A stretch of DNA of 64,000 bases, from positions 288,001 through 352,000 of the forward strand of contig CAVOXA010000001.1 of NCBI GenBank assembly GCA_963700285.1. Direction: 5' to 3'. Made by a program: the position numbers and the translations under genes. Numbering within the stretch: position 1 is the first letter of the stretch; each line of letters opens with the position of its first letter. The DNA comes from an uncultured Chloroflexia bacterium. GTDB lineage: Bacteria > Chloroflexota > Anaerolineae > JAAYZQ01. This document shows, one piece after another, positions 20,163 through 55,717 of the stretch. The notes under the pieces are model-generated. The model was not told where the DNA came from. It made no database searches and saw nothing but the letters and a program-made list of their open reading frames with translations.

Positions 20163-21595
20163 TTATTGCCAATGTTTCTCCATCTTTGCTAGCTCTTGGG
20201 CAACGTCTCCAGGTAGAGGCGCAGGTTGATGATCCATGGCTAGTTCTGTCCGCTCGCGCAGTCGCTCTTCGAACTGCTTCCCGCCCTTTGCCTGCCACTG
20301 GTCATAGATGGAGCGGTCGAACAGCTCCGAGTACCAGACATTCCGGAAGTGCTTGAGCGTGTGGTTCTCCAACAAGTGGTGCCCGCCGGGGCCGACTTTG
20401 TCCATCAGATCCAGGGCCAGAGACTCATCACTGACCGGGACTGCCGCCCATGTACTGCTCCACCATGTGCAGGATCTCGTTGACCAGCACCATGTAGGCG
20501 GGCGAGGCAACCGATCCATGGTCAAGCCAGCCCGAGTCGTGGACCAGGTTGGCGCCACTGAGCGCTGAGCTCAAACAGGAGAAGGCGGCCTCGGCGGCGG
20601 CCTGCGCGTCGGGGAACTTGGCGTCGGAGCAGCCCGCGGTGCCAAAGAAGGGCAGGCGATAGTGCTGGGCCATCTGGGCCATAGCAGCCACCATCAGGCT
20701 CATCTCTGCCGCGCCGTAGGAAAAGATGGTCGTTTTCATGTCCATGATCGTGGCAAAGGCGCCATAGATAAAGGGCGCCCCTGGCCGGACCAGTTGGGAC
20801 AGCACCAGTCCGCTGAGGGATTCGGCGCTGCCCTGCACGATCTCGCCGGCAAAGGTCGCCGGGCGCCGTGCTGCCGCCCTGCGGCGCCGGGTAGTTGATG
20901 AGAGGGATGCCCTTCTCGGCACAGAAGAGGATCTTTTCCACGGCCGGATCGTAGTACAGCAGCGGTGAGATTGGTTCGGAGTAGTGGACGCAGGTAGGCG
21001 CCTGCCGGAACTGATCTTCGCTGCCTGCGACCAGCAGGTACATTTCATAGATGTCGCGGGTGCTGTTGACGTCCTTGCAGCAAAAGACCAGTGGTTTTTC
21101 GCAATAGGTCAGTACCTGCTTGGCAATCACCCGGTCGGCGATGTCGGCTGGGACATCGTCGGCCATGCCAATGGTCATGACCCAGGAAAAGTTGGGCAAG
21201 GCATCGGCGACGATCGAAGTGATGCGGCAGTCGATCGCTGGCAAATCGGCGTCGCTCTCCTGTGCAGGGGCTCCAGATAGTCGACGCAGTCCACGCTGGG
21301 ACCAAACCAGACCTTGTCCCCTTCCAGGAATACGGATCGTGTGCCATCGCGCTGGCCCAGCACGACGCGGGAGGGCGCGGTACGTATGGCATCCTCGACC
21401 ATCCAGGCGGGCAGGTGTGCTCGATCTCCGTGCGACGCGCGCTCCGGCGCCGTGCAGCAGTTCCAGTGCCCGGGGATGGGTGATCTGGATGCCGGTTCGC
21501 TCCAGCAGCTCCAGCGTGGCCCAGTGGATCTGCTCGATCTGTTCCTCATTGAGTACCGACAGTCTGGGTTTGAAATTTAGGTCAGGATAGATCAT
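20163..21595 (-). CDS. mttB: MttB-superfamily methyltransferase #3 (several frameshifts)
   Basis: Fragments in three frames: EQIEQIHWATLELLERTG, SEPISPL, YGAAE, GTAGCSDAKFPDAQAAAE, DKVGPGGHHLLENHT. Confidence 0.82.
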
Positions 21596-41439: not shown

Positions 41440-41898
41440 TCAGGTGGTCATCACAAAGACCGCGCCCGCCGCCTTTGGTTCAAAATCGACGGACCATCTT
41501 GTGTACTTGTCGAACCGGGCTCCATGCAGATCGGCTTCGTTCAAGTCTGCTTGCTGAAAATTGGCCCCCACGAGGTGGGCATCCTGCAGGTCAGCGCCGC
41601 GTAGGTCGGCCTGGACGAAATTGGCCTTGGCCAAGTTGGCCAGCCGCAGCTTGGCCCCCCTCAAACAGGCCCTGGACAGTTCGGCCTCCATGAGGGTAGC
41701 CCCCGAAAGATCCACGCCAGCAAGATCAGCAGCCGCCACGTTGGTATTGGTCAGATCCGCATCGCGCAGGTCGGCCCCGCTCAGATCTGCCTTGTAGAGA
41801 CCCAAACCAGACAGGTCTTGGCCATGCAAGTCCAGGCGCTCACCCCGCGCGCGAGCCAGCGCAGCCAGGTCCCTAACATCTGCTACCGTCAATTTCAT
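41440..41898 (-). CDS. Pentapeptide-repeat protein
   Basis: Repeated A(D/N)Lxx units (ADLSG ADLRD ADLTN ... ANFQQ ADLNE ADLHG); ATG 41898 after GGGGAGG. Confidence 0.85.
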   Translation of the reverse strand: MKLTVADVRDLAALARARGERLDLHGQDLSGLGLYKADLSGADLRDADLTNTNVAAADLAGVDLSGATLMEAELSRACLRGAKLRLANLAKANFVQADLRGADLQDAHLVGANFQQADLNEADLHGARFDKYTRWSVDFEPKAAGAVFVMTT

Positions 41899-41973
41899 CT
41901 TTCTTCGGACCTCCCCTTTTTGAGCCTGCCCTACCTGTGCATCAGTGAAACCGTGGGCAGTCGTTGGAAATCT

Positions 41974-42003
41974 ATTGTACCACAGAAGCCCCGGCGTGCA
42001 CAA
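41974..42003 (-). promoter_or_regulatory. Putative divergent promoter for the pentapeptide/ltaE genes
   Basis: On the minus strand TTGTGC-18 nt-TACAAT with TG at the extended -10. Confidence 0.45.
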
Positions 42004-42064
42004 TCCATCTGGAGCGTTCTGCGCGGGGGCGAATCTCTGCTCCCCAGAGGTCGGGTCGCGGCAT

Positions 42065-42093
42065 TTGACAGGATCTTGCATCTGTGTTATGAT
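42065..42093 (+). promoter_or_regulatory. sigma70 promoter of the aro operon
   Basis: TTGACA-17 nt-TATGAT with an extended TG. Confidence 0.8.
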
Positions 42094-42186
42094 TGTGCAA
42101 CTTCTGGTAGGGATGGAAGGATGGTTCATCGAGCGCTGGACAGAAACCGGATAGATGATTCGTCACTGGCTGTTGGCTGGGGCGAG

Positions 42187-42303
42187 ATGCAGGGTCTTTC
42201 CAAGAGCCTTGGGGTTTGTGACTGGTATTTTGGCTACTTTTATTTTACCGGTGTGTACGCACCGGTCGGTTGCCCTGCGCCAGGGGGGTCTTGCCAGGAG
42301 TAG
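42187..42303 (+). CDS. Putative aromatic-amino-acid leader peptide (MQGLSKSLGVCDWYFGYFYFTGVYAPVGCPAPGGSCQE)
   Basis: Codon run TGG TAT TTT GGC TAC TTT TAT TTT at 42223-42246, between the promoter and the terminator; alternative in-frame ATG at 42121. Confidence 0.75.
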   Translation: MQGLSKSLGVCDWYFGYFYFTGVYAPVGCPAPGGSCQE

Positions 42304-42325
42304 ATTCGAAGCAAGAAGAACCTTA

Positions 42326-42365
42326 AACGAGCGTGGTGTAACCGGCACCACGCTCGTTCTTTATT
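42326..42365 (+). terminator. Attenuator terminator of the aro leader
   Basis: AACGAGCGTGGTG-TAACCGG-CACCACGCTCGTT followed by CTTTATT, ending 15 nt before aroH. Confidence 0.8.
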
Positions 42366-42380
42366 GCCTGGGAGTATGCC

Positions 42381-42773
42381 ATGTCCCATGATGGAAGGTG
42401 TGCAGTACAATGTCGAGGCATACGTGGCGCGATCACGGTCGAGCATGATTCAGCCACGGCGATCCTGGAGGCAACGCGCGAACTACTGGGCCGTATCGTC
42501 GACGCAAACGGGGTAGTTGTCGAGGATCTGGCCAGCGCCATCTTTACTGTCACACCAGACCTGACCGCTGCGTACCCGGCAGCGGCGGCCCGAGATCTGG
42601 GCTGGCAGCACGTGGCACTGCTGGATGCTCAGGAGATCCCGGTACCGGGCAGCCTACCTCGTTGTGTTCGTGTACTGCTTCATTGGAATACCGGCACACC
42701 GCAGGCAGAGATCTGCCACGTGTACCTCCGGGGTGCGGCCTCACTACGGCCAGACCTAACGAGCAGGAAGTGA
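42381..42773 (+). CDS. aroH: Chorismate mutase, AroH class
   Basis: [58 protein letters not shown]. Confidence 0.93.
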
Positions 42774-42819: not shown

Positions 42820-43659
42820 ATGACCACAGTCGCATTCCAAGGGGTACGAGGGGCCTATTCCGAGGAAGCAACCTTTCAGTTCTTTGGCCCGGACGTCGAA
42901 ACGCTGCCATGCCAGAGTTTCGAGGGCATCTTTGAGGCGGTCGAGTCTCGGGCGGCCGACTATGGCGTGCAGCCGGTAGAGAACTCGACGGCCGGATCGA
43001 TCAATCGTGCCTATGATCTGTTGCAGTCTCACGATCTCCGGGTCTGGGGGGAGGTCATTCTTAGGATCCAGCATGCATTATTGGCGCCGAAGGGGATGGC
43101 GTTGGGTGATGTCGTTCGGGTACGTTCTCAGCCCGAGGCCCTGGCCCAGTGCAAGCGCTACCTGAGCAATCACGGCTGGACCCCCGAAGCCACCTACGAT
43201 ACAGCGGGCAGCGCCCGAGACCTGGCTGCCAAGGCTGAGCCCGGGGTGGCGGCCATTGCCAGCCGGCTGGCGGGCCAGCTCTATGGCCTCGAGGAGCTGG
43301 ACTATGGCATCGAGGACTCGCCAAACAACTACACGCGCTTTTTCGTCCTCAGCATCAACGATGCACCGCGGGCACAGCGCAGCAAGACCTCGCTGGTCTT
43401 TGCCTCACGCCATCAACCCGGTGCTCTGTACGAGTGTATCGGTGAATTCTCCAAGCGACACGTTAACTTGAGCAAGCTCGAGTCGCGTCCGCGGCCGAAT
43501 CGGCCGTGGCAATACAGCTACTACCTGGACTTTGATGGCCACTGTCAGGATCCAGAGTGCGAAGCCGCGCTAATGGGGCTGCTGCGTCGCTCTTCGTTCG
43601 TCAAGTTGCTGGGTTCGTATCCTGCGGCGACGACCCCTACGCTTGACGAGACGGACTGA
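42820..43659 (+). CDS. pheA: Prephenate dehydratase with ACT domain
   Basis: [33 protein letters not shown]. Confidence 0.93.
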
Positions 43660-43691
43660 TGCCCGGAGCAGCGATAGTTGGAGGGAAGGCT

Positions 43692-44705
43692 ATGATCGTC
43701 ATTATGAAGCAAGGAGCAACCCGGGCTCAGGTGGTCAATGTCACGGCCCGTATTGAGCAGCTTGGCTGTACGGCGCACATCTCGGAGGGAGAGGAGCGCA
43801 CCATCATTGGCATCATCGGCAATGGGCGCCCGATAGACCGGGGAGCCGTTGAGCGGATGGACGGGGTCGAACAAACGGTACAGGTGCTGCGACCTTTCAA
43901 ACTGGCCAGCCGGGATTTTCACCCGCAGGACACTGTTGTTCCCATCAACGGAGTATCCGTCGGCGCCAAGAACTTGGTGGTCATAGCTGGCCCGTGTGCG
44001 GTCGAGGGGCGCTCGGAACTGATGGAGGCCGCGCAACTGGTCAAGGACGCCGGTGCCCAAATGCTGCGCGGTGGCGCCTTCAAGCCACGTACTTCGCCCT
44101 ATAGCTTTCAGGGAATGGGGGAAGAGGGACTGCGCATTCTAGCCGATGCTCGCCGGGAGACAGGGCTGCCCATCGTGACCGAGGTCATGGCCCCGGAGCA
44201 GGTGCCTTTGGTGACGACCTATGCCGATGTCCTGCAGATCGGGGCCCGAAACATGCAGAACTATGCCCTGTTGCACGCTGTAGGCGAGGCGCAGCGGCCT
44301 GTTCTGCTGAAGCGGGGAATGATGTCTACCATCGAAGAACTGCTGATGTCGGCTGAATACATCCTGTCCCATGGCAACAACCGGGTGATGCTGTGCGAGC
44401 GTGGGATCCGTACTTTTGAACAATACACGCGGAACACGCTTGACATCAATGCCATCCCGCTGCTCAAGCAGCTCAGCCATCTACCCGTCATCGTAGATCC
44501 AAGCCACGGAACCGGCAAGTGGGAACTGGTGGAGGCTGTCTCCAAGGCAGCCGTGGCAGCCGGGGCGGATGGGCTGATCATCGAGGTCCACCCACACCCC
44601 AGCCAGGCCATGTCCGATGGAGCCCAGTCCCTCAAGCCAGAGACCTTTGCCCGGCTGATGGACGATCTTGGCGCCATCGCTCGCGCTGTGGGTCGGGAGT
44701 TTTGA
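43692..44705 (+). CDS. aroF: DAHP synthase (type I-beta, N-terminal regulatory domain)
   Basis: [51 protein letters not shown]; ATG 43692. Confidence 0.95.
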
Positions 44706-45619
44706 TGATGGCGCAACTGGAACAGGAACGTTCCCCAGTCGACCAGTATCCGCTGACTGAAGGCCGGCTACAGCATGCCCAGGTCACCATCGTGGGTTTG
44801 GGTCTGATGGGCGGCTCACTGGCTGGCGCGCTACGGGGCAAATGCCGGGCTGTTGTCGGGATGGCCCGTCGCGCCGAGGTGCTTGAAACTGCGCTGGCCC
44901 AGAACCTCATCGATTGGGGCACGGCCGACTTGGCGGAGGGTTTGCGCCAGGCGGACGTTGTTGTTCTGGCAACACCGGTGCGCGTCATTCTTCGTCAGTT
45001 GGCCGAGCTTTCACCTCTCTTGCCCCGGGGCTGCCTGTTGTTGGATCTGGGCAGCACAAAGGCCGAGATCGTCGCCGAGATGGCGAGACTACCGGAGCAT
45101 ATCCAGCCCTTGGGTGGACACCCGATGTGCGGTAAGGAGGTGTCAGGGATCGAGGTGGCCGATCCGGCTCTCTATCAGGGCACTACCTTTATCCTGTGTC
45201 CGTTGCCGCGCACCTCCGGTTGGGCGCTGAACCTGGGCTGCCAACTGGTCGAGGCCGTCGGTGCCCAGGCACTGGTGCTAGAAGCGGAGCGCCAAGACTC
45301 CCTCGTCGCCACTCTGAGCCACCTGCCCTACATGTTGGCCTGCGCGCTGGTTGGCACCGCAGATACCCTGACCTCTCCTGATCCGGCAGCTTGGGAGATC
45401 GTAGCTGGAGGCTATCGCGATACGTCGCGTGTGGCGGGCAGCGACGTGAAGATGATGGTCGATATCCTGATGACCAACCGAGAAGAAGTCGTGCGTTCGG
45501 TAGAAGCCTGCCAGGCCCAGCTCGGCCGCCTGGCGACTCTTGTACAAGCGGGCGCAGAGGATGAACTGCAAGCTACGCTGAGCGCCATTCGTGAAGAGAG
45601 GAGGCGAATGTACCCGTGA
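44705..45619 (+). CDS. tyrA: Prephenate/arogenate dehydrogenase
   Basis: IVGLGLMGGSLA, DLGSTK, GGHPMCGKE, SHLPY, GGYRDTSRVA. Confidence 0.9.
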   Translation: MMAQLEQERSPVDQYPLTEGRLQHAQVTIVGLGLMGGSLAGALRGKCRAVVGMARRAEVLETALAQNLIDWGTADLAEGLRQADVVVLATPVRVILRQLAELSPLLPRGCLLLDLGSTKAEIVAEMARLPEHIQPLGGHPMCGKEVSGIEVADPALYQGTTFILCPLPRTSGWALNLGCQLVEAVGAQALVLEAERQDSLVATLSHLPYMLACALVGTADTLTSPDPAAWEIVAGGYRDTSRVAGSDVKMMVDILMTNREEVVRSVEACQAQLGRLATLVQAGAEDELQATLSAIREERRRMYP

Positions 45620-46959
45620 GCCGGCTCTGCGTGCAAGGCGCCGCGCCTCTGTGTGGGCGCATCCAGGTCCCAGGCGACAAGTCAGTCTCGCATCGCTCAC
45701 TGTTGTTGGGTTCCCTTGCAGAGGGGAAAAGCCGCGTGGAACGTTTTTTACCTGCTGCCGATTGCCGCGCTACGCTGAGTGCCGTGCGCGCGTTGGGTGT
45801 GGAGGTCGAGGAGCTGGGTCCATCGACGCTGATTCTCAGGGGCCGGGGACTGCGAGGCTTGCAGGAACCGGATGATGTCGTAGATTGCAGCCGCTCGGGT
45901 ACGACGATGCGGCTGCTGGCTGGAATCCTCGCCGGCCAGCCCTTCTTAACTGTTCTCTCAGGTGATGTCCAACTGAGGCGGCGGCCCATGGGGCGCATTG
46001 CAGAACCGTTGCGGCGCATGGGTGCGACGGTCCTGGGCCGGGACGGTGACCGCCTGCCGCCCCTGGCCATTCAGGGAGGTTCCCTTCAGGGCCTGGACTA
46101 TACGCTTCCAGTGGCCAGTGCTCAAGTCAAGAGTGCTCTATTGCTGGCCGGCCTGTACGCCGGAGGGCCCACGAGCCTGTGCGTGCCCGGGCCTGCGCGG
46201 GATCACACGGAACGGATGCTGGTGGCGATGGGAGCCAGGTTGGAGACTGAAGACTGGGGGTTGGCTGCTGGTGGACAGCGTTTACGGCTTGAGCCTGGCC
46301 ATTTCTTGCAAGCACTGGACCTTGCTGTGCCAGGGGATTTTTCGTCGGCGGCCTATTTCCTGGTAGCAGCAAGTCTTGTGCCCGGCTCGGAGGTCCTGAT
46401 CGAGGGCGTGGGTGTGAATCCCACCCGTACCGGACTGCTGGATGTGCTGCAGGCCATGGGCGCCGACGTCGTGCTGGAAGACACACGGATGGTGGGCGGC
46501 GAGCCTGTGGCGGATCTGGCGGTGCGCGCTTCGGACCTGGTCGCCACGGAGGTGAGCGGTCAGCTGGTGGTGCGGGCCATCGACGAGTTTCCTGTCCTGG
46601 CCGTAGCTGCCACCCAGGCCCGGGGAGAAACGGTGGTGCGTGACGCGGCCGAGCTGCGAGTGAAAGAGACCGACCGGATTGCTACCACGGTGCAGGAATT
46701 GCGCCGGCTGGGAGCCGAGATCGAGGCTCAGCCAGATGGTTTTGTCGTTCATGGTCCAACACCTCTGCGGAGCTCTGATCTCGCCGAAGGACAAGGATCC
46801 ATGGTTTGCAGCCATGGTGACCATCGTCTGGCGATGGCCCTGACCGTGGCCGGGTTGATTGCCAGGGGTGAGACCTGCGTACAGGACACGGACTGTATTG
46901 CCGACTCTTTCCCCGGCTTTGCGGCAGCGTTGGCAAGGCTGGGGGGAAACTTGCGATGA
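45616..46959 (+). CDS. aroA: EPSP synthase (class II)
   Basis: PGDKSVSHR, SGTTMRL, RRRPMGRI, SAQVKSA, RDHTERML, ELRVKETDRI, GDHRLAM. Confidence 0.96.
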   Translation: MSRLCVQGAAPLCGRIQVPGDKSVSHRSLLLGSLAEGKSRVERFLPAADCRATLSAVRALGVEVEELGPSTLILRGRGLRGLQEPDDVVDCSRSGTTMRLLAGILAGQPFLTVLSGDVQLRRRPMGRIAEPLRRMGATVLGRDGDRLPPLAIQGGSLQGLDYTLPVASAQVKSALLLAGLYAGGPTSLCVPGPARDHTERMLVAMGARLETEDWGLAAGGQRLRLEPGHFLQALDLAVPGDFSSAAYFLVAASLVPGSEVLIEGVGVNPTRTGLLDVLQAMGADVVLEDTRMVGGEPVADLAVRASDLVATEVSGQLVVRAIDEFPVLAVAATQARGETVVRDAAELRVKETDRIATTVQELRRLGAEIEAQPDGFVVHGPTPLRSSDLAEGQGSMVCSHGDHRLAMALTVAGLIARGETCVQDTDCIADSFPGFAAALARLGGNLR

Positions 46960-47906
46960 CCGCCACTCCCGCGCAGCTTGTGACCGGCCCAGCCCCAGGG
47001 GTTGAGGACTCAATCTTTCGGGTTGGACTGGTGGGCTGGCCGGTAGAACACAGCGTTTCGCCGGCCATGCACAACGCTGCCTTTGATGCGCTGGATCTCA
47101 ACTGGCGCTATTTTCCTCTACCAACACCTCCCGACAAGGTGGAAGTTACCCTGGCCCAACTTCGTGAGCATGGGTACCGGGGAGCCAACGTCACCCTGCC
47201 CCACAAGCGGACCGTCATGCCCTACTTGGACGAACTCACGGATGCGGCGCGTGCCATTGGCGCAGTGAATACCATCCTTGCTGATGGCGCGCTGTTGGTC
47301 GGTCACAACACGGACGGGGATGGCTTCTTGATCGCGCTGAGGGCGGCGGGTTTTGATCCTGCTGGCCAGCGGGCACTGGTGTTGGGCGCTGGCGGTGGGG
47401 CACGGTCCGTGATCTATGCCCTGGCTCAAGCTGGTTGTTCGGTCACCCTCCACAACCGGACAGTGCAGCGGGCTACAAGTCTTGTGCAGGACATGCAGGC
47501 CGCGTGCCTCCAGCCAGCAGGCTCCTGGCTAACGCAGGCGACTAGCTTACAGGATCTGGATCTGGATGCCTACAGCCTATTGGTCAATACAACCTCGGTG
47601 GGGATGTGGCCCAACGTGGACGCCTCTCCGTGGCCGGAGGCTCCGGCAATGCCGTCGCATTGGACGGTCTTTGACCTGGTTTATAACCCTGAGGAAACCT
47701 GCCTTCTATCCGGGGCGCGCGCTGCTGGAGCCATGCCGGTCAGGGGCCTGGGCATGCTCGTACACCAGGGCGCCCTGGCCTTTGAGTTGTGGACAGGGCA
47801 AACGGCGCCGGTGGAAGTCATGTATACTGCTGCCAGGGAGGCACTGGGGCCAACGGGCAGGCGACCGGCAGTGGGCAGCCCTTGGGTGTTGGCTAGCGAA
47901 CACTGA
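46956..47906 (+). CDS. aroE: Shikimate dehydrogenase
   Basis: GWPVEHSVSP, GANVTLPHK, IGAVNT, NTDGDG, GAGGGARS, DLVYNP, GMLVHQG. Confidence 0.94.
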   Translation: MTATPAQLVTGPAPGVEDSIFRVGLVGWPVEHSVSPAMHNAAFDALDLNWRYFPLPTPPDKVEVTLAQLREHGYRGANVTLPHKRTVMPYLDELTDAARAIGAVNTILADGALLVGHNTDGDGFLIALRAAGFDPAGQRALVLGAGGGARSVIYALAQAGCSVTLHNRTVQRATSLVQDMQAACLQPAGSWLTQATSLQDLDLDAYSLLVNTTSVGMWPNVDASPWPEAPAMPSHWTVFDLVYNPEETCLLSGARAAGAMPVRGLGMLVHQGALAFELWTGQTAPVEVMYTAAREALGPTGRRPAVGSPWVLASEH

Positions 47907-47958
47907 ATGTCCAAGGCAGGAAATCGAGTATCGAATATTGACCTCGCGGAGGCTTGAG

Positions 47959-49125
47959 ATGTTGCGCTTTTTGACTGCTGGCGAGTCCCATGGCCCGGGT
48001 CTGACGGCAATCCTGGAAGGCTTGCCCGCGGGCATATGCCTGCGAGAAGATGACATAAACGTCCAGTTGGGCAAGAGACAGAAGGGATTTGGCAGCGGTG
48101 GCCGGATGCGGATCGAGCAGGATCAGATCCGTTTCACCGGCGGCTTGTTGGGCGGCAAGACCACGGGGGCCCCGCTGGCCATGCAATTCGAGAACAAAGA
48201 CTGGGCCAACTGGCGCGAACGCGATATCTCACCCATGACCATCCCCCGGCCGGGTCACGCCGACCTGACGGGGGCGATCAAGTATGGCTATCGGGACCTG
48301 CGGCTGGCATTGGAGCGGGCCAGCGCCCGGGAGACGGCTGCCCGCGTGGCGGTCGGCGCGGTCTGCCAGCAACTGCTGGCAGAGGTCGGCATCATCGTCG
48401 GCAGTTATGTCGTGCGGATTGGCAGCGCCTCGGCGGCGCTTCCTGAGGAACTGAGCTACACCGAGCGGTTCGCCCAGGCTGAGGAAAGCAACGTGCGTTG
48501 TCCGGATCCGGTTGCCGGGGAGGCCATGTACGCCTGCATCCGCGAGGCAATGGCCGCCAAAGATACCCTGGGCGGTGTATTTGAGGTCGTCGCACTTGGG
48601 CTGCCACCCGGGTTGGGCAGCCACGTCCACTGGGACCGACGGCTCGATGCCCGCTTGATGGGGGCTGTGGGTTCCATCCAGGCCGTCAAGGGCGTGGAGA
48701 TCGGCCCCGCGTTTGAGAATGCGGCCAAACGTGGTACAGAGGTGCACGACGAGATCCTGGAGGAAGAGGAACTGCTTGTCCGGCCGACCAACCGCGCCGG
48801 CGGTTTTGAAGGCGGTATCACTACCGGGCAGCCGGTGGTCGTGCGGGCGGCGATGAAACCTATCTCAACGACGCTGACTCCTCTGCGGTCGGTCGATCTG
48901 GCCACCGGCCAGCCGGCTGCGACACGCTATGAACGGTCGGATACCTGTGCCGTGCCTCGCGCAGCCGTCGTGGGTGAGGCGATGGTCGCGTTTGTCCTGG
49001 CCGATGCCCTTCTGGACAAATTGGGGGGAGACAGCCTGGCTGAGATGCGACCCCGTTTCACCGCTCTCCGGCGCGGTACCCTCCGAGATCTGGAGATGGA
49101 CAATGTATCCTGGCGATTCTCCTAG
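47959..49125 (+). CDS. aroC: Chorismate synthase
   Basis: MLRFLTAGESHG, PRPGHADL, ERASARETA, NRAGGFEGG, AMKPIST, RSDTCAVP. Confidence 0.96.
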   Translation: MLRFLTAGESHGPGLTAILEGLPAGICLREDDINVQLGKRQKGFGSGGRMRIEQDQIRFTGGLLGGKTTGAPLAMQFENKDWANWRERDISPMTIPRPGHADLTGAIKYGYRDLRLALERASARETAARVAVGAVCQQLLAEVGIIVGSYVVRIGSASAALPEELSYTERFAQAEESNVRCPDPVAGEAMYACIREAMAAKDTLGGVFEVVALGLPPGLGSHVHWDRRLDARLMGAVGSIQAVKGVEIGPAFENAAKRGTEVHDEILEEEELLVRPTNRAGGFEGGITTGQPVVVRAAMKPISTTLTPLRSVDLATGQPAATRYERSDTCAVPRAAVVGEAMVAFVLADALLDKLGGDSLAEMRPRFTALRRGTLRDLEMDNVSWRFS

Positions 49126-50704
49126 ACTGGGAACCAAGAACCTGATCCTCACCGGTTTCATGGGCACCGGCAAGACGGCTGTGGGACAGGATTTGGCCCG
49201 CCGCCTGGGCAGAGAGTTCCTGGATATGGATGCCCTCATCGCAGATCGAGAGGGCATGAGCGTGGCCGAAATCTTTGGCCGAAGGGGCGAGGAGCGCTTC
49301 CGCCTCCTGGAGGTCGAGCTCTGCCGGGAGCTGGCTGCCAAACAGAATCTCGTGATCGCCAGCGGGGGTGGAGCACTGTTACCGGAGGCTAACGCGGAAA
49401 TCTTGAGCGCCAGCGGTCCGATTGTGTGCCTCAGCGCCTCGCCAGACGAGATCCTGCGCAGGCTGGAGGGCGTCCGGGACCGGCCCCTGCTCGAAGCTCC
49501 TGACCGGGAGGCCCGCATCGCCGCACTGCTGATGCAGCGGGAGGAGGCCTACGAGCGTATCCCGTTGCAGATTGATACCACGGGACGGACAGTCGCCCAG
49601 GTTGCCGATCAGGTCTTGGCCCTGGCGGGTACCGCTTCGTTCCAGCGCATACCTGTGAGCCATCCAGGCGGCGAATATCCGATCTATCTGGGTGGAGGCC
49701 TGCTGGCCCAGGCTGGAGACCTATTACGAACACGGGACGTAGGCGACCAGATTGTGCTGGTTTCCACGCCCCCTGTGGGCGAGCGCTACGCTGCGACGGT
49801 CACCGGTAGTTTGGAGCGCGCAGGTTACCGCGTGGCCACCAGTACCGTGCCAGATGGTGAGGTTCACAAGACGCTGGAAACGGTGCGGGTGCTCTACGAT
49901 ACTTTTATCGAGGCCGGGCTGGACCGGCGCGGGGCGTTGCTGGCCCTGGGTGGGGGAGTCGTAGGCGACATGGCGGGTTTTGCTGCGGCCACCTACCTTC
50001 GGGGCGTAGCCTTGGTTCAGTGCCCCACCAGCTTGTTGTCGATGGTGGACAGTAGTATCGGTGGCAAGGTGGCTGTGGATCACCCGCGGGGTAAGAACCT
50101 GATCGGTGCCTTCAAACAGCCCGAGTTGGTGATTATTGATCCCGAGACGCTGTCCACCCTTCCTGCCAGAGAGGTTGCCAGTGGCCTGGCCGAGGTTGTG
50201 AAGACGGGCCTAATTGGTGATCCTGATTTGTTTGAACAGATTGAGCGATACGGACCGGCCCCGATACGCTGGATCATCGAGCGGGCACTGCGGGTCAAGG
50301 CCGGTGTTGTTCAAGAGGATCCCTACGAGCGTGGCCGCCGGGCGGTGCTCAACTTGGGACACACCTTTGGTCACGCGTTGGAGCTGTTGAGCGACTACAG
50401 GCTGTCCCACGGCGAGGGGGTCAGTATTGGGCTGGTGGCGGCGTCGCGGCTGTCAGCCAGGCTGGGGCTTTGCAGCCCGGCTCTTGCCAGACGTGTTGAG
50501 CAAGTACTGGCGCGTCTGGACCTGCCAACGCGGTATCGGGGCCATGCACCAGAGCAGATCTGGCAGGCCATGGCCACGGACAAGAAGCGCAGGGGAAAGA
50601 CATTGCGCTTTATCCTGCTTCGAGCTGTAGGTGAGGTCCTGACGACTGACCAGGTGAGACAGGAGGACGTGTTGGCTGTTTTGGAGATGTTGAGCGAAGG
50701 CTGA
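49103..50704 (+). CDS. aroKB: Bifunctional shikimate kinase / 3-dehydroquinate synthase
   Basis: N-terminal LTGFMGTGKT...RPLL kinase; C-terminal LGGGVVGDMAGF, PTSLLSMVDSSIGGK, KNLIGAF, LNLGHTFGHA. Confidence 0.92.
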   Translation: MYPGDSPRLGTKNLILTGFMGTGKTAVGQDLARRLGREFLDMDALIADREGMSVAEIFGRRGEERFRLLEVELCRELAAKQNLVIASGGGALLPEANAEILSASGPIVCLSASPDEILRRLEGVRDRPLLEAPDREARIAALLMQREEAYERIPLQIDTTGRTVAQVADQVLALAGTASFQRIPVSHPGGEYPIYLGGGLLAQAGDLLRTRDVGDQIVLVSTPPVGERYAATVTGSLERAGYRVATSTVPDGEVHKTLETVRVLYDTFIEAGLDRRGALLALGGGVVGDMAGFAAATYLRGVALVQCPTSLLSMVDSSIGGKVAVDHPRGKNLIGAFKQPELVIIDPETLSTLPAREVASGLAEVVKTGLIGDPDLFEQIERYGPAPIRWIIERALRVKAGVVQEDPYERGRRAVLNLGHTFGHALELLSDYRLSHGEGVSIGLVAASRLSARLGLCSPALARRVEQVLARLDLPTRYRGHAPEQIWQAMATDKKRRGKTLRFILLRAVGEVLTTDQVRQEDVLAVLEMLSEG

Positions 50705-50756
50705 GGCGTGGGGCGTGACAGGCGATGCGTACATTGCGCAATAGGGGAGAAAAACG

Positions 50757-51224
50757 ATGTGGCAGATACAGGTGATCCACGGACCCAATCTGAATCTCTT
50801 TGGGAGGCGCGAGCCTGCTATCTATGGCCGAGTGACACTGGCTGAGATCGATGAGCGATTGCAGGCCCAGGCTGCTGAGGCCGGGGTAGCGTTGCGGACT
50901 TTTCAATCCAACCATGAGGGAGCCATCGTCGATGTCGTGCAGCAAGCGGCCGGATGGGCTCATGGCCTGGTGATCAATCCCGGCGCCCATACCCACTACT
51001 CCTATGCCATTCGGGACGCCATCGCGGGTGTTGCTCTGCCGGCTGTGGAGGTGCACCTGTCCAACGTCCACGCCCGCGAACCCTTCCGGCGCACGTCGGT
51101 CATCGCGCCGGTGTGCGTGGGACAGATCTGCGGCTTTGGCTGGCGGAGCTATGGGCTGGGACTGGAAGCACTGCTAGACCACCTTCAAGATGCAATGGCC
51201 AGCGGCAAAGCAGAATCTCGGTGA
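50757..51224 (+). CDS. aroQ: Type II 3-dehydroquinate dehydratase
   Basis: [48 protein letters not shown]. Confidence 0.95.
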
Positions 51225-51273
51225 AGGGTGCTGCTCTTTGGGCAGTTGGACCGCGCTCGATAGGAGGGGAACG

Positions 51274-52692
51274 GTGGGAACACTGATCGTCAAGTTTGGC
51301 GGTACCTCGGTCGGTAGCGCCGAGGCCCTTACTCAGGCATCTGGTATTGTGCAGGCACAGGCCAGGGACTGGGATCGCCTGGTGGTGGTCGTCTCGGCCA
51401 TGAGAGGGGTGACAGATTCCTTGATCCGTGGCGCGCGTACGGCTGCTTCCGGCGACGATCAAGTCTATCGATCTACGGTCACGGATCTGCGCGTACTCCA
51501 CTATCGGGCCGTGGATGCCCTGCTCCTTTCTGACAGCGAACGCACCCAATTGCTGGCGAGGGTAGACGAGTACCTGGACGAGTTCTCCGCTTTTTGCCAC
51601 AGTGTCTACATTTTGGGCGAGGCCACGTCGCGGGCCATGGATGCAGTCACCTCGTTGGGTGAGCGGATTAACGCACGCCTCATGGCTGCTCTGCTGCGCC
51701 AGGGTGGCCTGCGCAGTGAGGCTGTGGATGCCACCGCGGTGATCGTCACCGACGATACCTTTCAAAACGCCGTCCCGCTGATGGAGGCCAGCCGAACTCA
51801 GGCTTCCGCACGTCTGGGCCCGTTGTTAGACGAGGGCGTGGTGCCGGTCGTGACCGGTTTTATCGGAGCCACGGAGAAGGGTATCACGACGACCTTGGGG
51901 CGGGGCGGCAGTGACTATAGCGCGGCGATTCTGGGGGCTTGCCTGGACGCCGATGAAGTCTGGACCTGGACAGACGTGGACGGTGTGATGACGGCTGACC
52001 CGAATATGGTAGCGGAGGCGCGGGTGATCCCTACGCTTTCGTACAGCGAGGTAGGCGAGCTTGCCTACTTTGGGGCCAAGGTGCTGCATCCGCGGACCAT
52101 CCGTCCCGTCGTGGAGCGTGGCATTCCACTCCGGGTCAAGAATACCTTCAATCCGGCCTCTCCTGGTACCCGCATTGTCCGCGAGCCGGAAAGCACGCCT
52201 GGGACCGTCAAGGCGGTGACTGCCATCAAAGGCCTGAGCCTGGTGACGGTGGAGGGTCGAGGTATGATGGGGGTACCGGGCATCGCTGCACGTACTTTTT
52301 CGGCGGTCGCCAGTCAGGGCACCAGCGTGTTGATGATCTCCCAGTCCTCGTCGGAGCAGTCTATCTCATTTGTCATCCCTATGGATGCGGTCGTACCAGT
52401 GGTCAAGGCCATTGAGCGAGAGATGGCCTTGGAGCTGGCCCGACGGGACATAGATCGTGTCTGGTCGCTGGACGATGTGGTGATCGTGAGCGCGGTGGGA
52501 ACGGGCATGCGTGGTACTCCAGGTGTTGCTCAGCGCATCTTTGGCGCACTGGGTGAGGGGGATATCAATGTGATCGCGATTGCCCAGGGTTCATCAGAAT
52601 GCAGCATATCGCTCGTGGTCAAAGCCGAGGCTGCGGTCGACGCCGTGCGAAGGATTCACGATCAGGTGCTGCTTATCAATGGAGTATCTTGA
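51274..52692 (+). CDS. lysC: Aspartate kinase (two ACT domains)
   Basis: KFGGTSVG, VVVVSAM, TTLGRGGSDYSA, TDVDGVMTADP, FGAKVLHP; GTG 51274 after AGGAGGGG. Confidence 0.93.
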   Translation: MGTLIVKFGGTSVGSAEALTQASGIVQAQARDWDRLVVVVSAMRGVTDSLIRGARTAASGDDQVYRSTVTDLRVLHYRAVDALLLSDSERTQLLARVDEYLDEFSAFCHSVYILGEATSRAMDAVTSLGERINARLMAALLRQGGLRSEAVDATAVIVTDDTFQNAVPLMEASRTQASARLGPLLDEGVVPVVTGFIGATEKGITTTLGRGGSDYSAAILGACLDADEVWTWTDVDGVMTADPNMVAEARVIPTLSYSEVGELAYFGAKVLHPRTIRPVVERGIPLRVKNTFNPASPGTRIVREPESTPGTVKAVTAIKGLSLVTVEGRGMMGVPGIAARTFSAVASQGTSVLMISQSSSEQSISFVIPMDAVVPVVKAIEREMALELARRDIDRVWSLDDVVIVSAVGTGMRGTPGVAQRIFGALGEGDINVIAIAQGSSECSISLVVKAEAAVDAVRRIHDQVLLINGVS

Positions 52693-52715
52693 CTGATTCC
52701 GGGAGGTTACACTGG

Positions 52716-53849
52716 ATGAAGAACTATGGCTACGCATCCGTCCAGGAATTCCTCGACGATCGTATTGTCTATCGAAACCTGGTACCCTCTGATCCCCGGT
52801 TGCCACCGGTGTCAGAGGTGCGCCGGAAGATAGGGTTGCCACCTGGCCTGGTCCCGCGCAAAACTGCACCAGAGTACGCCCAGGTCATCGTCCATCTGCT
52901 CCAGCAGGCGCGGGCTCTCGATATGCCTGGCATCCCTATCCAGCGCCTGGTCTACGTAGGCGACACACCCATGAACGATGGAACGGCATTCACAAATATC
53001 AGTGATGCGGGAAACTGGCCGGGTCTGGCCTTTATTGGTTCTGATCGCGATGAACCGGCTCGCGTGGAACTGGTCGAACGTGAGAGGGGGATGCTCTACG
53101 TGGCGAACCGCTGGGGGGCGCTCTCGGACTTTCGGCAGTTCTGTCGCGACCGGAGCTTTCCGGTGGACGAGGGGACGGCCGTCATTGTTGACCTGGACAA
53201 GACGGCCGTGGGGGCGCGAGGACGCAACGATCATGTCATCGATCAAGCCCGTGTTGAGGCTGTGCGCCGGACGGTTGGCGATCTGTTGGGCGATGAGTTT
53301 GACCCGGAGAGCTTTCAGACAGCCTATGACTGCCTGAACCAACTCGAGTTCCACCCGTTCACCGCCGACAATCAAGACTATTTGGCCTACATCTGCCTGA
53401 TCTTGGGCAGTGGCCTGTATTCATTGGACGGCCTGGTGGCCGACGTGCGGGCGGATCGGGTGGCAGCCTTTCAACAGTTTATCGCTAAAGTGGACGATCA
53501 GGCTGGCGAGTTGCCTGCCAGTCTGCGGCAGATACACAGCGACATCCATGACCGTGTGTTGCAAGGCGATCCGACCCCTTTCAAGGCGTTTCGTTACACA
53601 GAGTATCTGGTCACAGTGGAAAAGATGGGTTGGTTGGCGGAAAGTGCAACGATTGATGCGTTGCTTGCGGACGAGCTTGTCATCACACAGGAGGTGCGAG
53701 AGACGGCACTGACCTGGCTTGGCCAAGGGGCATTGCTCTTTGGTCTCTCGGACAAACCTGATGAGGCATCCATCCCGACCAGTGACCTTGCCGCTCAAGG
53801 ATACCGGCCGATCCACCGAATGGATACTCGCGCTGTAGGAACTGTATGA
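52716..53849 (+). CDS. Uncharacterised HAD-like protein with permuted motif order
   Basis: RKTAPEY...[11 protein letters not shown] near the N-terminus, IVDLDKT in the middle, LFGLSDKP near the C-terminus; ATG 52716 after GGGAGG. Confidence 0.6.
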
Positions 53850-53934
53850 TGACCCAGGATGGGTGAAGAAGAGCAGGGCATGGCTTGCACCTCGGGAGGC
53901 CTGGCTTTCTTTGCCCGGTTTGGAGGTGGCGTTC

Positions 53935-55257
53935 ATGGGCTACAATAGCTGGCTCGAATGTGTCCGCGGCTGCGGCCGTCGATACTCCATCTATGATGTG
54001 GTCTATCGCTGCGAGGATTGCGGTGGCTTGTTGGATGTGGAGCACGATCTGGACGCACTCAAGGATCGCAGCGCCGCTGACTGGCGACAGCTTTTTGACC
54101 GCCGGATACGGACCAATGAGTGGCCCTACGGGAGTGGTGTATGGGGCAAGAAGGAGTGGGTCTGCCCCGAGGTGGCCAACGACAACGTCGTCTCGATGTA
54201 TGAGGGGCACACCAACTGTTTCTGGGCAGAGCGCCTTGGGAAGGAGATCGGCGTGTCCGACCTTTGGGTCAAGCTGTCGGGGAATAGCCACACCGGTTCC
54301 TTCAAAGACCTGGGGATGACGGTGTTGATCTCTGTAGTACGGCAGATGATGGCTGATGGAAAACCGATTCGCGCCGTCGCCTGTGCATCCACCGGTGATA
54401 CCTCGGCAGCGCTGGCAGCCTACGGCGCTGCTGCTGGCATCCCTACGATCGTGTTTCTGCCCCGTGGCAGAGTCTCTACCGCCCAGTTGGTACAGCCCAT
54501 CGCGCACGGCGCGCTGGTACTGGCGTTGGATACCGACTTTGATGGTTGCATGCGCATTGTGCGCGAGGTCACCGCAGATCAGACCATCTACCTGGCAAAC
54601 TCGATGAACTCGCTGCGGATGGAGGGACAAAAGACAGTCGGCATTGAGATAGCTCAGCAATTCGATTGGCAGGCTCCGGACTGGCTCATCATCCCAGCGG
54701 GCAATCTGGGCAACGTTAGCGCCCTGGGCAAGGGACTGCTGATGATGCGGGAATTGGGTCTGATAGATAGGCTGCCGCGCATTGCCTGCGCCCAGGCGGC
54801 CCACGCCAACCCCCTCTACCTCAGCTATCTCACGGGCTTTGAAGAGTACATGTCTGTGTCCGCGGCCGAGACCCTGGCCACCGCCATCCAGATCGGTGAG
54901 CCGGTGAGCTATGAGCGAGCTGTCAAGGTGCTGCAGGCCTTTGACGGCGTGGTCGAGCAGGCTACCGAAGATGAACTGGCCAATGCTGCTGCTGCTGCCG
55001 ACCGTGCGGGCCTGTATAGTTGTCCTCAAACCGGTGTGGCTCTGGCGGTACTGGATAAATTGATTGCTCGTGGAGAGATTCTGCCTGAACATCGCGTGGT
55101 TGTCATCTCTACTGCCCATGGCCTCAAGTTCACTCGCTTCAAGGTCGGATATCACGAACAAGCACAGGTGGAAGTCGTGGCCCAGCACGCCAATCCGCCG
55201 GTGGAGCTGCCGGCTGACACCAGATCTGTGCTCCGGGCCATCGAGCAGGCTCTTTGA
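53935..55257 (+). CDS. thrC: Threonine synthase
   Basis: [57 protein letters not shown]. Confidence 0.93.
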
Positions 55258-55402: not shown

Positions 55403-55431
55403 TTGACAAATACCGCGGACTGTGGTATAAG
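55403..55431 (+). promoter_or_regulatory. sigma70 promoter of the ilv-leu operon
   Basis: TTGACA-17 nt-TATAAG with an extended TG. Confidence 0.75.
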
Positions 55432-55493
55432 AGCGCGATGTGAAGGTGACTGAGTCATGGCTCCAGTGGGCCGTGGCCGAAAGTGAGAGTGCA

Positions 55494-55598
55494 GTGCTCC
55501 AAGCCTTATACCTTGCCCAACTGGTCATCGTTATTCTGTTGTTGGTTGAGCTCCTTGGGATTAAGGAGCAATTGGCCGTTGGGAGGGTTTCTGCATAG
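55494..55598 (+). CDS. Putative ilv/leu leader peptide (MLQALYLAQLVIVILLLVELLGIKEQLAVGRVSA)
   Basis: Run CTG GTC ATC GTT ATT CTG TTG TTG GTT at 55521-55547; stop TAG 55596; in-frame GTG starts at 55440, 55446, 55473 and 55494. Confidence 0.75.
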   Translation: MLQALYLAQLVIVILLLVELLGIKEQLAVGRVSA

Positions 55599-55621
55599 CA
55601 GATACACACAGCAAACAGGCG

Positions 55622-55650
55622 AGGGCCTCCCACAAGGGAGGCCTTTTTTT
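55622..55650 (+). terminator. Attenuator terminator of the ilv leader
   Basis: AGGGCCTCCC-ACAA-GGGAGGCC-TTTTTTT, upstream of ilvD. Confidence 0.88.
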
Positions 55651-55717
55651 GCGCTAGACCTGTTTCCGTCGGCCGCCGATGGGCAGGGGTAGAAAGACAG
55701 AGCCAGAGAGGAGAAAA

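Follow-up and report, generated by a model that had tools for sequence, protein, structure and literature searches.

The transcription attenuators of Escherichia coli follow a four-segment scheme, and mixed-codon leaders such as thrL (Thr/Ile) and ilvL (Ile/Leu/Val) sum several end products of a branched pathway, so that multi-input sensing as such is not new. For the aromatic amino acids, the E. coli pheL-pheA, pheM-pheST, and trpL attenuators are described, in the available part of one source, as sensing one amino acid each (PMC11802643). Corynebacterium glutamicum carries the leader aroR, with Phe-Tyr-Phe codons, before aroF (available part of PMC4046766); limitation of Phe reportedly acts on this FYF attenuator and Tyr is without effect (Neshat et al. 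2014, as summarised in the available part of PMC11802643), which indicates that a codon in such a run need not be sensed. The Shewanella aroF leader RNA is tabulated as a Tyr-tRNA-sensing attenuator, citing E. coli work, in the available part of PMC2659441, and the element considered here is not described in the available parts of PMC2965389, PMC3223726, and PMC4833913. The first-pass annotation of the present locus knew of no described example of a single ribosome-stalling sensor for the common aromatic pathway, a claim that is too strong given the precedent of C. glutamicum aroR in the accessible text of two sources (PMC4046766 and PMC11802643). In a literature search limited to main texts, no description of a Chloroflexota aro leader was found. 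Lopatovskaya et al. (2010; Mol Biol 44:128) reportedly predicted attenuators in Chloroflexi, which could pre-empt part of the finding.

In the window (the whole stretch of 64,000 nucleotides analysed here), the region before aroH very probably contains a classical leader-peptide transcription attenuator ahead of the aromatic operon. The best explanation overall, held with moderate confidence, is a Tyr/Phe leader-peptide attenuator in which Trp contributes little if anything in this genome; that the device works through Tyr and Phe, the Trp codon being idle or of minor effect, is likewise somewhat favoured. The features are as follows.

42065..42093, plus strand: predicted sigma-70-type promoter, TTGACA-17-TATGAT with an extended −10 TG (11 of 12 consensus matches)
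42109..42116, plus strand: likely ribosome-binding site AGGGATGG of the leader ORF (from the sequence and the Shine-Dalgarno motifs of relatives)
42121..42303, plus strand: leader ORF of 60 codons, unannotated (ORF scan and comparison with relatives)
42201..42224, plus strand: segment 1, predicted 5' strand of the anti-antiterminator, covering part of the Trp codon
42223..42246, plus strand: control codons W-Y-F-G-Y-F-Y-F, with Tyr/Phe as the conserved core and Trp variable
42265..42283, plus strand: segment 2, antiterminator strand, complementary to the left arm and loop of the terminator
42326..42365, plus strand: intrinsic terminator (stem 42326–42358) with a U-rich tail
42381..42773, plus strand: aroH, AroH-type chorismate mutase (TIGR01796 above cut-off)
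42820..43659, plus strand: pheA, prephenate dehydratase (NF008865 above cut-off)
43689..44705, plus strand: aroF, DAHP synthase (NF006421 and TIGR01361 above cut-off)
44705..45619, plus strand: tyrA, prephenate dehydrogenase, start approximate (several TyrA models, all below cut-offs)
45616..51224, plus strand: aroA, aroE, aroC, an aroK-aroB fusion, and aroQ (remaining shikimate pathway)

Both the promoter and an aromatic run in an ORF ending with TAG 42303 had been proposed in the first-pass annotation, and both were borne out, the former by its consensus bases and extended −10, the latter by reading of the sequence. A promoter scan gave 2 sites against 0.4 in shuffles, and the transcription start would lie near 42100. 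No start had been given for the leader ORF; the likely one is ATG 42121, which has AGGGA 7 nt upstream and is retained by the same-genus genome, and ATG 42187 was rejected as a start because it is absent from that genome. The ORF closes with TAG 42301–42303, and its run at 42223–42246 reads TGG TAT TTT GGC TAC TTT TAT TTT (WYFGYFYF), with seven of the eight codons aromatic. The leader peptide has no match in Pfam, and its exact sequence is absent from the protein collection. Overlapping the leader start is an out-of-frame short ORF (42113–42154, plus strand), which might influence leader initiation; its aromatic codons are retained only in part in the sister genome, and as a candidate upstream ORF with W and F codons it was set aside, its first W and F being C and I there. 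Upstream of the promoter lies a divergent pentapeptide-repeat gene (41440–41898, minus strand); at that place the same-genus genome has different DNA.

The operon order aroH-pheA-aroF-tyrA-aroA-aroE-aroC-aroKB-aroQ was verified by profile search, and no trp genes were found from aroH to aroQ. On the 3' side of aroQ follow genes for an aspartokinase, an unknown ORF, and thrC (51224–55257, plus strand), with short gaps after aroQ and no strong terminator in the scan; the aromatic leader may therefore also control these genes. The ORF between aspartokinase and thrC (52716–53849, plus strand, 377 aa) has no NCBIfam or Pfam match and, judged by its position, may be a candidate for a missing step of the threonine pathway, e.g. 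homoserine kinase. A second likely attenuator is located upstream of ilvD (55403–55655 of the window, plus strand). There, a promoter-like TTGACA-17-TATAAG is accompanied by a short ORF, running from GTG 55440 or 55473 to TAG 55598 and containing LVIVILLLVELLGI at 55521–55562, and then by a terminator with a 7-U tail; the fold of this candidate has a z-score of −3.5. In another part of the window, Rfam reports PYLIS_3 (mttB pyrrolysine insertion sequence) at 20532–20631 on the minus strand, barely above cut-off.

The terminator before aroH, earlier credited with 13 base pairs, is present with 14 (stem 42326–42358; −25.3 kcal/mol; z-score, −6.8; 0 of 200 shuffles), and its tail, UUCUUUAUU, is a modest U-tract. 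The pairing of 42265–42280 with 42331–42346 at 15 of 16 positions was confirmed by a hand count (4 G-U pairs and one C/U mismatch), and the region 42260–42350 folds into the antiterminator at a z-score of −1.95 (7 of 200 shuffles). GACTGGT (42220–42226) and ACCGGTC (42261–42267), previously suggested as the anti-antiterminator, can pair with each other but share only 3 nt with the antiterminator strand, and were rejected in this role on that ground. A better anti-antiterminator would be formed by about 42201–42224 with 42265–42293 (duplex, −25.6; 1 of 60 shuffles); folded alone in the window, this region is weak (z-score, −0.86; 39 of 200 shuffles).

The arrangement was compared across the same class (Chloroflexota, likely Anaerolineae), in which aroH was detected in 212 of 301 genomes. 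In all, 137 aroH loci, mostly the best-scoring ones, were taken on the basis of the aroH score and not of the leader; nine were dropped (4 duplicates and 5 with too little upstream DNA), leaving 128. At 113 of the 128 loci, the 400 nt preceding aroH hold a stretch of 10 codons with at least five F/Y, as opposed to 2 of 128 antisense controls and 9 of 640 shuffled sequences. Of the 113, 110 also have a terminator with an energy of −8 kcal/mol or lower. Several of the 15 loci failing the run criterion have shorter runs, e.g. FTYYY and FTFYYW. Two loci (L006 and L028) are seemingly without a leader upstream of aroH, L028 retaining a hairpin and U-tract right after the promoter. Inside the 110 runs there are 409 Tyr, 303 Phe, and 7 Trp residues, and both synonymous codons are used for each of Tyr and Phe (TAT 221, TAC 188, TTT 239, and TTC 64). 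A start with a Shine-Dalgarno motif is found in frame in 84 of the 110 leaders, as opposed to 17 and 4 in the other frames, and 99 of the 110 have a similar promoter ahead of the run (13 of 110 in the antisense control).

These features bear on the proposal that the ORF is not a sensor at all, the U-rich stretch being an RNA element (a protein-binding site or pause) or the terminator a fixed attenuating leak. It would accord with the equilibrium folding of the window, which depends little on ribosome position, and translation of the leader is a prediction. The run, however, retains codon periodicity, its third positions varying freely among synonyms (T 487 and C 383), lies in the sole frame with a start and Shine-Dalgarno motif, and has codons that fit the end products of the operon, and we consider this proposal highly improbable; selection appears to act on the translated codon run. 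An attenuator answering to one amino acid only (Phe, or Tyr), with the remaining codons acting as a U-rich region of generally slow translation, has a precedent in C. glutamicum aroR, which responds to Phe limitation and not to Tyr (available part of PMC11802643), and in the class Tyr-only leaders do occur (6 of 110), Phe-only leaders being absent. Against it, 104 of the 110 leaders have both residues in the run and keep F and Y interleaved, with a mean of at least three of each where pheA follows. The F share is also higher with pheA in the operon (0.48 versus 0.39, p 0.03), although by family the difference is not significant (p 0.2). A single-amino-acid device is judged very unlikely, if slightly less so than a non-sensing ORF, and joint reading of Tyr and Phe is retained here.

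The pairing segments are conserved along with the run. Segment 2 starts 10–24 nt past the run in 94 of 110 leaders, clear of a stalled ribosome, and pairs more strongly with its own terminator arm (−21.2 kcal/mol) than with the arms of other loci (−17.3 kcal/mol), doing so in 90% of loci and beating all 60 shuffles in 53 of 110. Segment 1 behaves similarly with segment 2 (−23.1 versus −18.9), with 52 of 110 loci at no more than 3 of 60 shuffles. Covariation was evaluated in an alignment made from 39 leaders, hand-picked from the 110 for alignability, a choice that favours the following pair counts: the antiterminator (2:3) is 83.8% paired with 37 two-sided compensatory changes, the terminator (3:4) 89.7% with 34, and the anti-antiterminator (1:2) 73.2% with 59, each at 0 of 500 shuffles. 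Two-sided changes in helix 1:2 occur at 12 of 12 pairs, and in slid registers the pairing drops to 25–62%. The compensatory counts are inflated by relatedness, kin not being independent, yet loop-complementary pairs covary across families. With compensatory changes in three helices, the four-segment layout of classical attenuators is present; at the level of sequence comparison, the locus combines a promoter, an in-frame leader ORF, a Tyr/Phe run, and predicted mutually exclusive helices 1:2, 2:3, and 3:4. A conserved codon run and covarying stems in relatives had been named as the check on the idea that a ribosome-responsive attenuator precedes the common-pathway genes and pheA/tyrA; both were found, in support of that idea.

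Based on this layout, a shortage of charged tRNA-Tyr or tRNA-Phe would stall the ribosome at the Tyr/Phe run, whereupon the antiterminator would form and the operon be transcribed. If it halts where the run begins, the ribosome would cover segment 1 and leave segment 2 free to capture the emerging left arm and loop of the terminator; a ribosome running on would sweep segment 2, and helix 1:2 could re-form behind it, allowing the terminator to fold. The choice must be kinetic, because the full-length RNA at equilibrium always ends in the terminator. When a ribosome is modelled on the first codon of the run, the mean cost of freeing segment 2 drops to 8.2 kcal/mol, from 11.2 kcal/mol, over the 90 of 110 loci whose segment 2 lies beyond the run but within the ORF, and the drop exceeds 2 kcal/mol in 52 loci. 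In the window the cost hardly drops, being 14.1 without a ribosome and 10.8–15.3 across the run. Equilibrium ribosome-walk folding gives no clean switch. Over the 110 loci, the terminator arm is held at equilibrium at 0.69 with the ribosome stalled, 0.63 with it at the stop codon, and 0.61 with none; the corresponding values for the window are 0.67 without a ribosome, 0.61–0.68 for a ribosome at the first codons, 0.25 for one at the last Phe codon, 0.68 for one at the stop codon, and 0.14–0.33 for one passing over segment 2 (42256–42280). The stop codon lies mostly 10–25 nt past segment 2, so that a terminating ribosome barely covers it.

The first-pass annotation read the run as sensing Trp, Tyr, and Phe together. 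Conservation of the Tyr/Phe core and an enrichment of Trp near the run uphold part of this reading; Trp as an equal third input at this locus is not upheld. If the device truly read all three amino acids, a ribosome halted at the lone Trp codon (42223) would also give read-through, and the pathway would answer to three end products, an option we regard as possible but doubtful. In its favour, among residues other than F and Y, W shows the strongest enrichment in the run and up to 4 codons away from it (49 of 1074 codons versus 42 of 3437 elsewhere in the leaders, 3.7-fold; with one leader for each of 42 families, about 25 of 410 versus 17 of 1310), and TGG just after the run stands in frame 15 times, with 3 occurrences in each of the other two frames. 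Leaders with W near the run are also commoner where trpC was found (28 of 64 versus 11 of 43, p 0.07; by family, 17 of 29 versus 3 of 13, p 0.05). The Trp codon is retained in the same-genus genome, which carries a trp operon, and the modelled effect of the ribosome is greatest at the first run codon and 3 codons before the run. However, W stands inside the F/Y run of only 7 of the 110 class leaders, and, with the run extended across gaps of up to 2 codons, is present in 38 and absent from 72. One codon gives a weak stall. Upstream of the run, the share of TGG among NGG is equal in and out of frame (29 of 79, 19 of 55, and 20 of 61), as expected if RNA pairing drives TGG there. The alignment column under the U of the Trp codon holds C-G 7, U-A 7, and U-G 4 times; as this first-base column alternates with a matching partner, the codon alternates between W, R, and G as the RNA pairing allows.

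The distribution of trp genes also weighs against Trp as a full input here. Besides the operon having none, trpE, trpA, and trpC were not found in this genome, which is 89% complete, so that trp genes may be unassembled. The same-genus genome has all three, and 12 of 15 other genomes of the same family yielded no trpC, a pattern pointing to a patchily lost Trp pathway or to gaps in assembly; the leader is present in genomes where trpC was not found (43 of 107). In the same-genus genome and one other, a T-box above the Rfam cut-off, with its specifier read as UGG, precedes trpE; with such a Trp T-box before its trp operon, the same-genus genome would have a separate sensor for Trp. Reading of Tyr and Phe explains the Trp enrichment beside the run only in part.

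Outside the class, 79 aroF or aroH loci were collected, of which 4 lacked an anchor, and a leader with a terminator was found at 22 of the 75 scanned, compared with 0 of 75 on the antisense strand. W is in the core of 10 of these 22 leaders (6 of 14 families). When the operons of 12 W-leaders and 8 leaders without W were traced, those of the W-leaders up to 10 kb, trpE was found behind the aro genes in 7 of 12 and 0 of 8, respectively. The seven come from only two families (f75 and f65), and their leaders are of a different, shorter subtype. Seven leaders (L172, L173, L183, L190, L196, L197, and L219) are short and of the YYWF/WYW type with strong terminators, and most of their aro operons run on into trpEG; no significant overlapping antiterminator was found in these short leaders, which argues for a different subtype. 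Rather speculatively, the leaders may form a phylum-wide set with codons tuned to the operon, Tyr and Phe being the base and Trp added, in which WYFGYFYF would be a single sensor of three aminoacyl-tRNAs. If so, Trp enters the run fully (YYWF, WYW, and YWYW) where trpEG joined the operon, and the Trp codon of the window doubles as part of the anti-antiterminator helix. The three-way idea thus stays alive for the leader family, being plausible elsewhere in the phylum and doubtful at this site, where the reading as a Tyr/Phe attenuator is preferred.

T-boxes had been named as the usual expectation in this lineage. They are indeed present in it, but before tRNA synthetase genes and the trp operon and not before aroH, where no T-box (RF00230) was found. 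Six T-box-like leaders below the Rfam cut-off were located in the genome (C1:796571, C15:143765, C10:762913, C1:1611066, C1:12858, and C1:631562); as judged from translations, the genes behind them are pheS, thrS, trpS, serS, valS, and an ORF upstream of ileS-like genes, the identity of trpS being confirmed by a further analysis. No Rfam family matched the aroH leader at the gathering score, nor at E up to 10 on 41900–42500, and no amino-acid leader family matched the leaders of four relatives. A scan of the whole genome for other leaders was too noisy for Trp, with 933 candidates, and that part was dropped. In its F/Y part, a second Tyr run with a terminator (C1:1776535) proved to be a C-terminal Tyr cluster of a long ORF, presumably a bacterial tyrosine kinase, and not a leader.

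Transcription of the leader is weakly indicated by one public sediment metatranscriptome containing a 190-nt contig identical to 42123–42312 at depth 6, from a single run whose contigs lack strand and ends, may include DNA, and are possibly not independent of the assembly. Three near-identical 151-nt contigs from the same run lie in ilvD (20 kb compared). No identical contig was found over aroH-aroQ in that run; given the sparse coverage and the lack of contig ends and strand, this is not taken as evidence of termination.

If this reading holds, a large, mostly uncultured phylum gains a defined control device for the whole aromatic pathway, in which leader peptides and T-boxes split the work within one genome. 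The more than 100 natural variants make it possible to study the number of inputs that one leader can combine and the effect, if any, of a lone Trp codon, and the unannotated RNA/peptide family is ready for model building; for specialists, the finding should be welcome and not startling. Compared with known systems, the locus has the same order of leader ORF with a cognate run, anti-antiterminator, antiterminator, and intrinsic terminator as E. coli pheL, pheM, and trpL, which differ in sensing a single amino acid and in controlling genes of a terminal branch or of a synthetase; none of the Rfam leader models fits the present locus. With thrL and ilvL it shares the principle of one leader with several inputs, the amino acids being different. 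T-boxes (RF00230) likewise read tRNA charging and control a terminator, and are used in this lineage before pheS, thrS, trpS, serS, valS, and trpE. The closest counterpart, as far as the available descriptions go, is C. glutamicum aroR, also a mixed Phe/Tyr leader peptide before a DAHP synthase gene, through which the common pathway is controlled via ribosome stalling. That leader has only Phe-Tyr-Phe in its available description, as opposed to 5–8 F/Y codons here, and the present one is longer (60 codons), carries an optional Trp codon, and stands before a nine-gene operon with pheA and tyrA in another phylum, the two being likened by description and not by homology. The mechanism is thus a textbook one, and a Phe/Tyr leader before aroF is already known from Corynebacterium.
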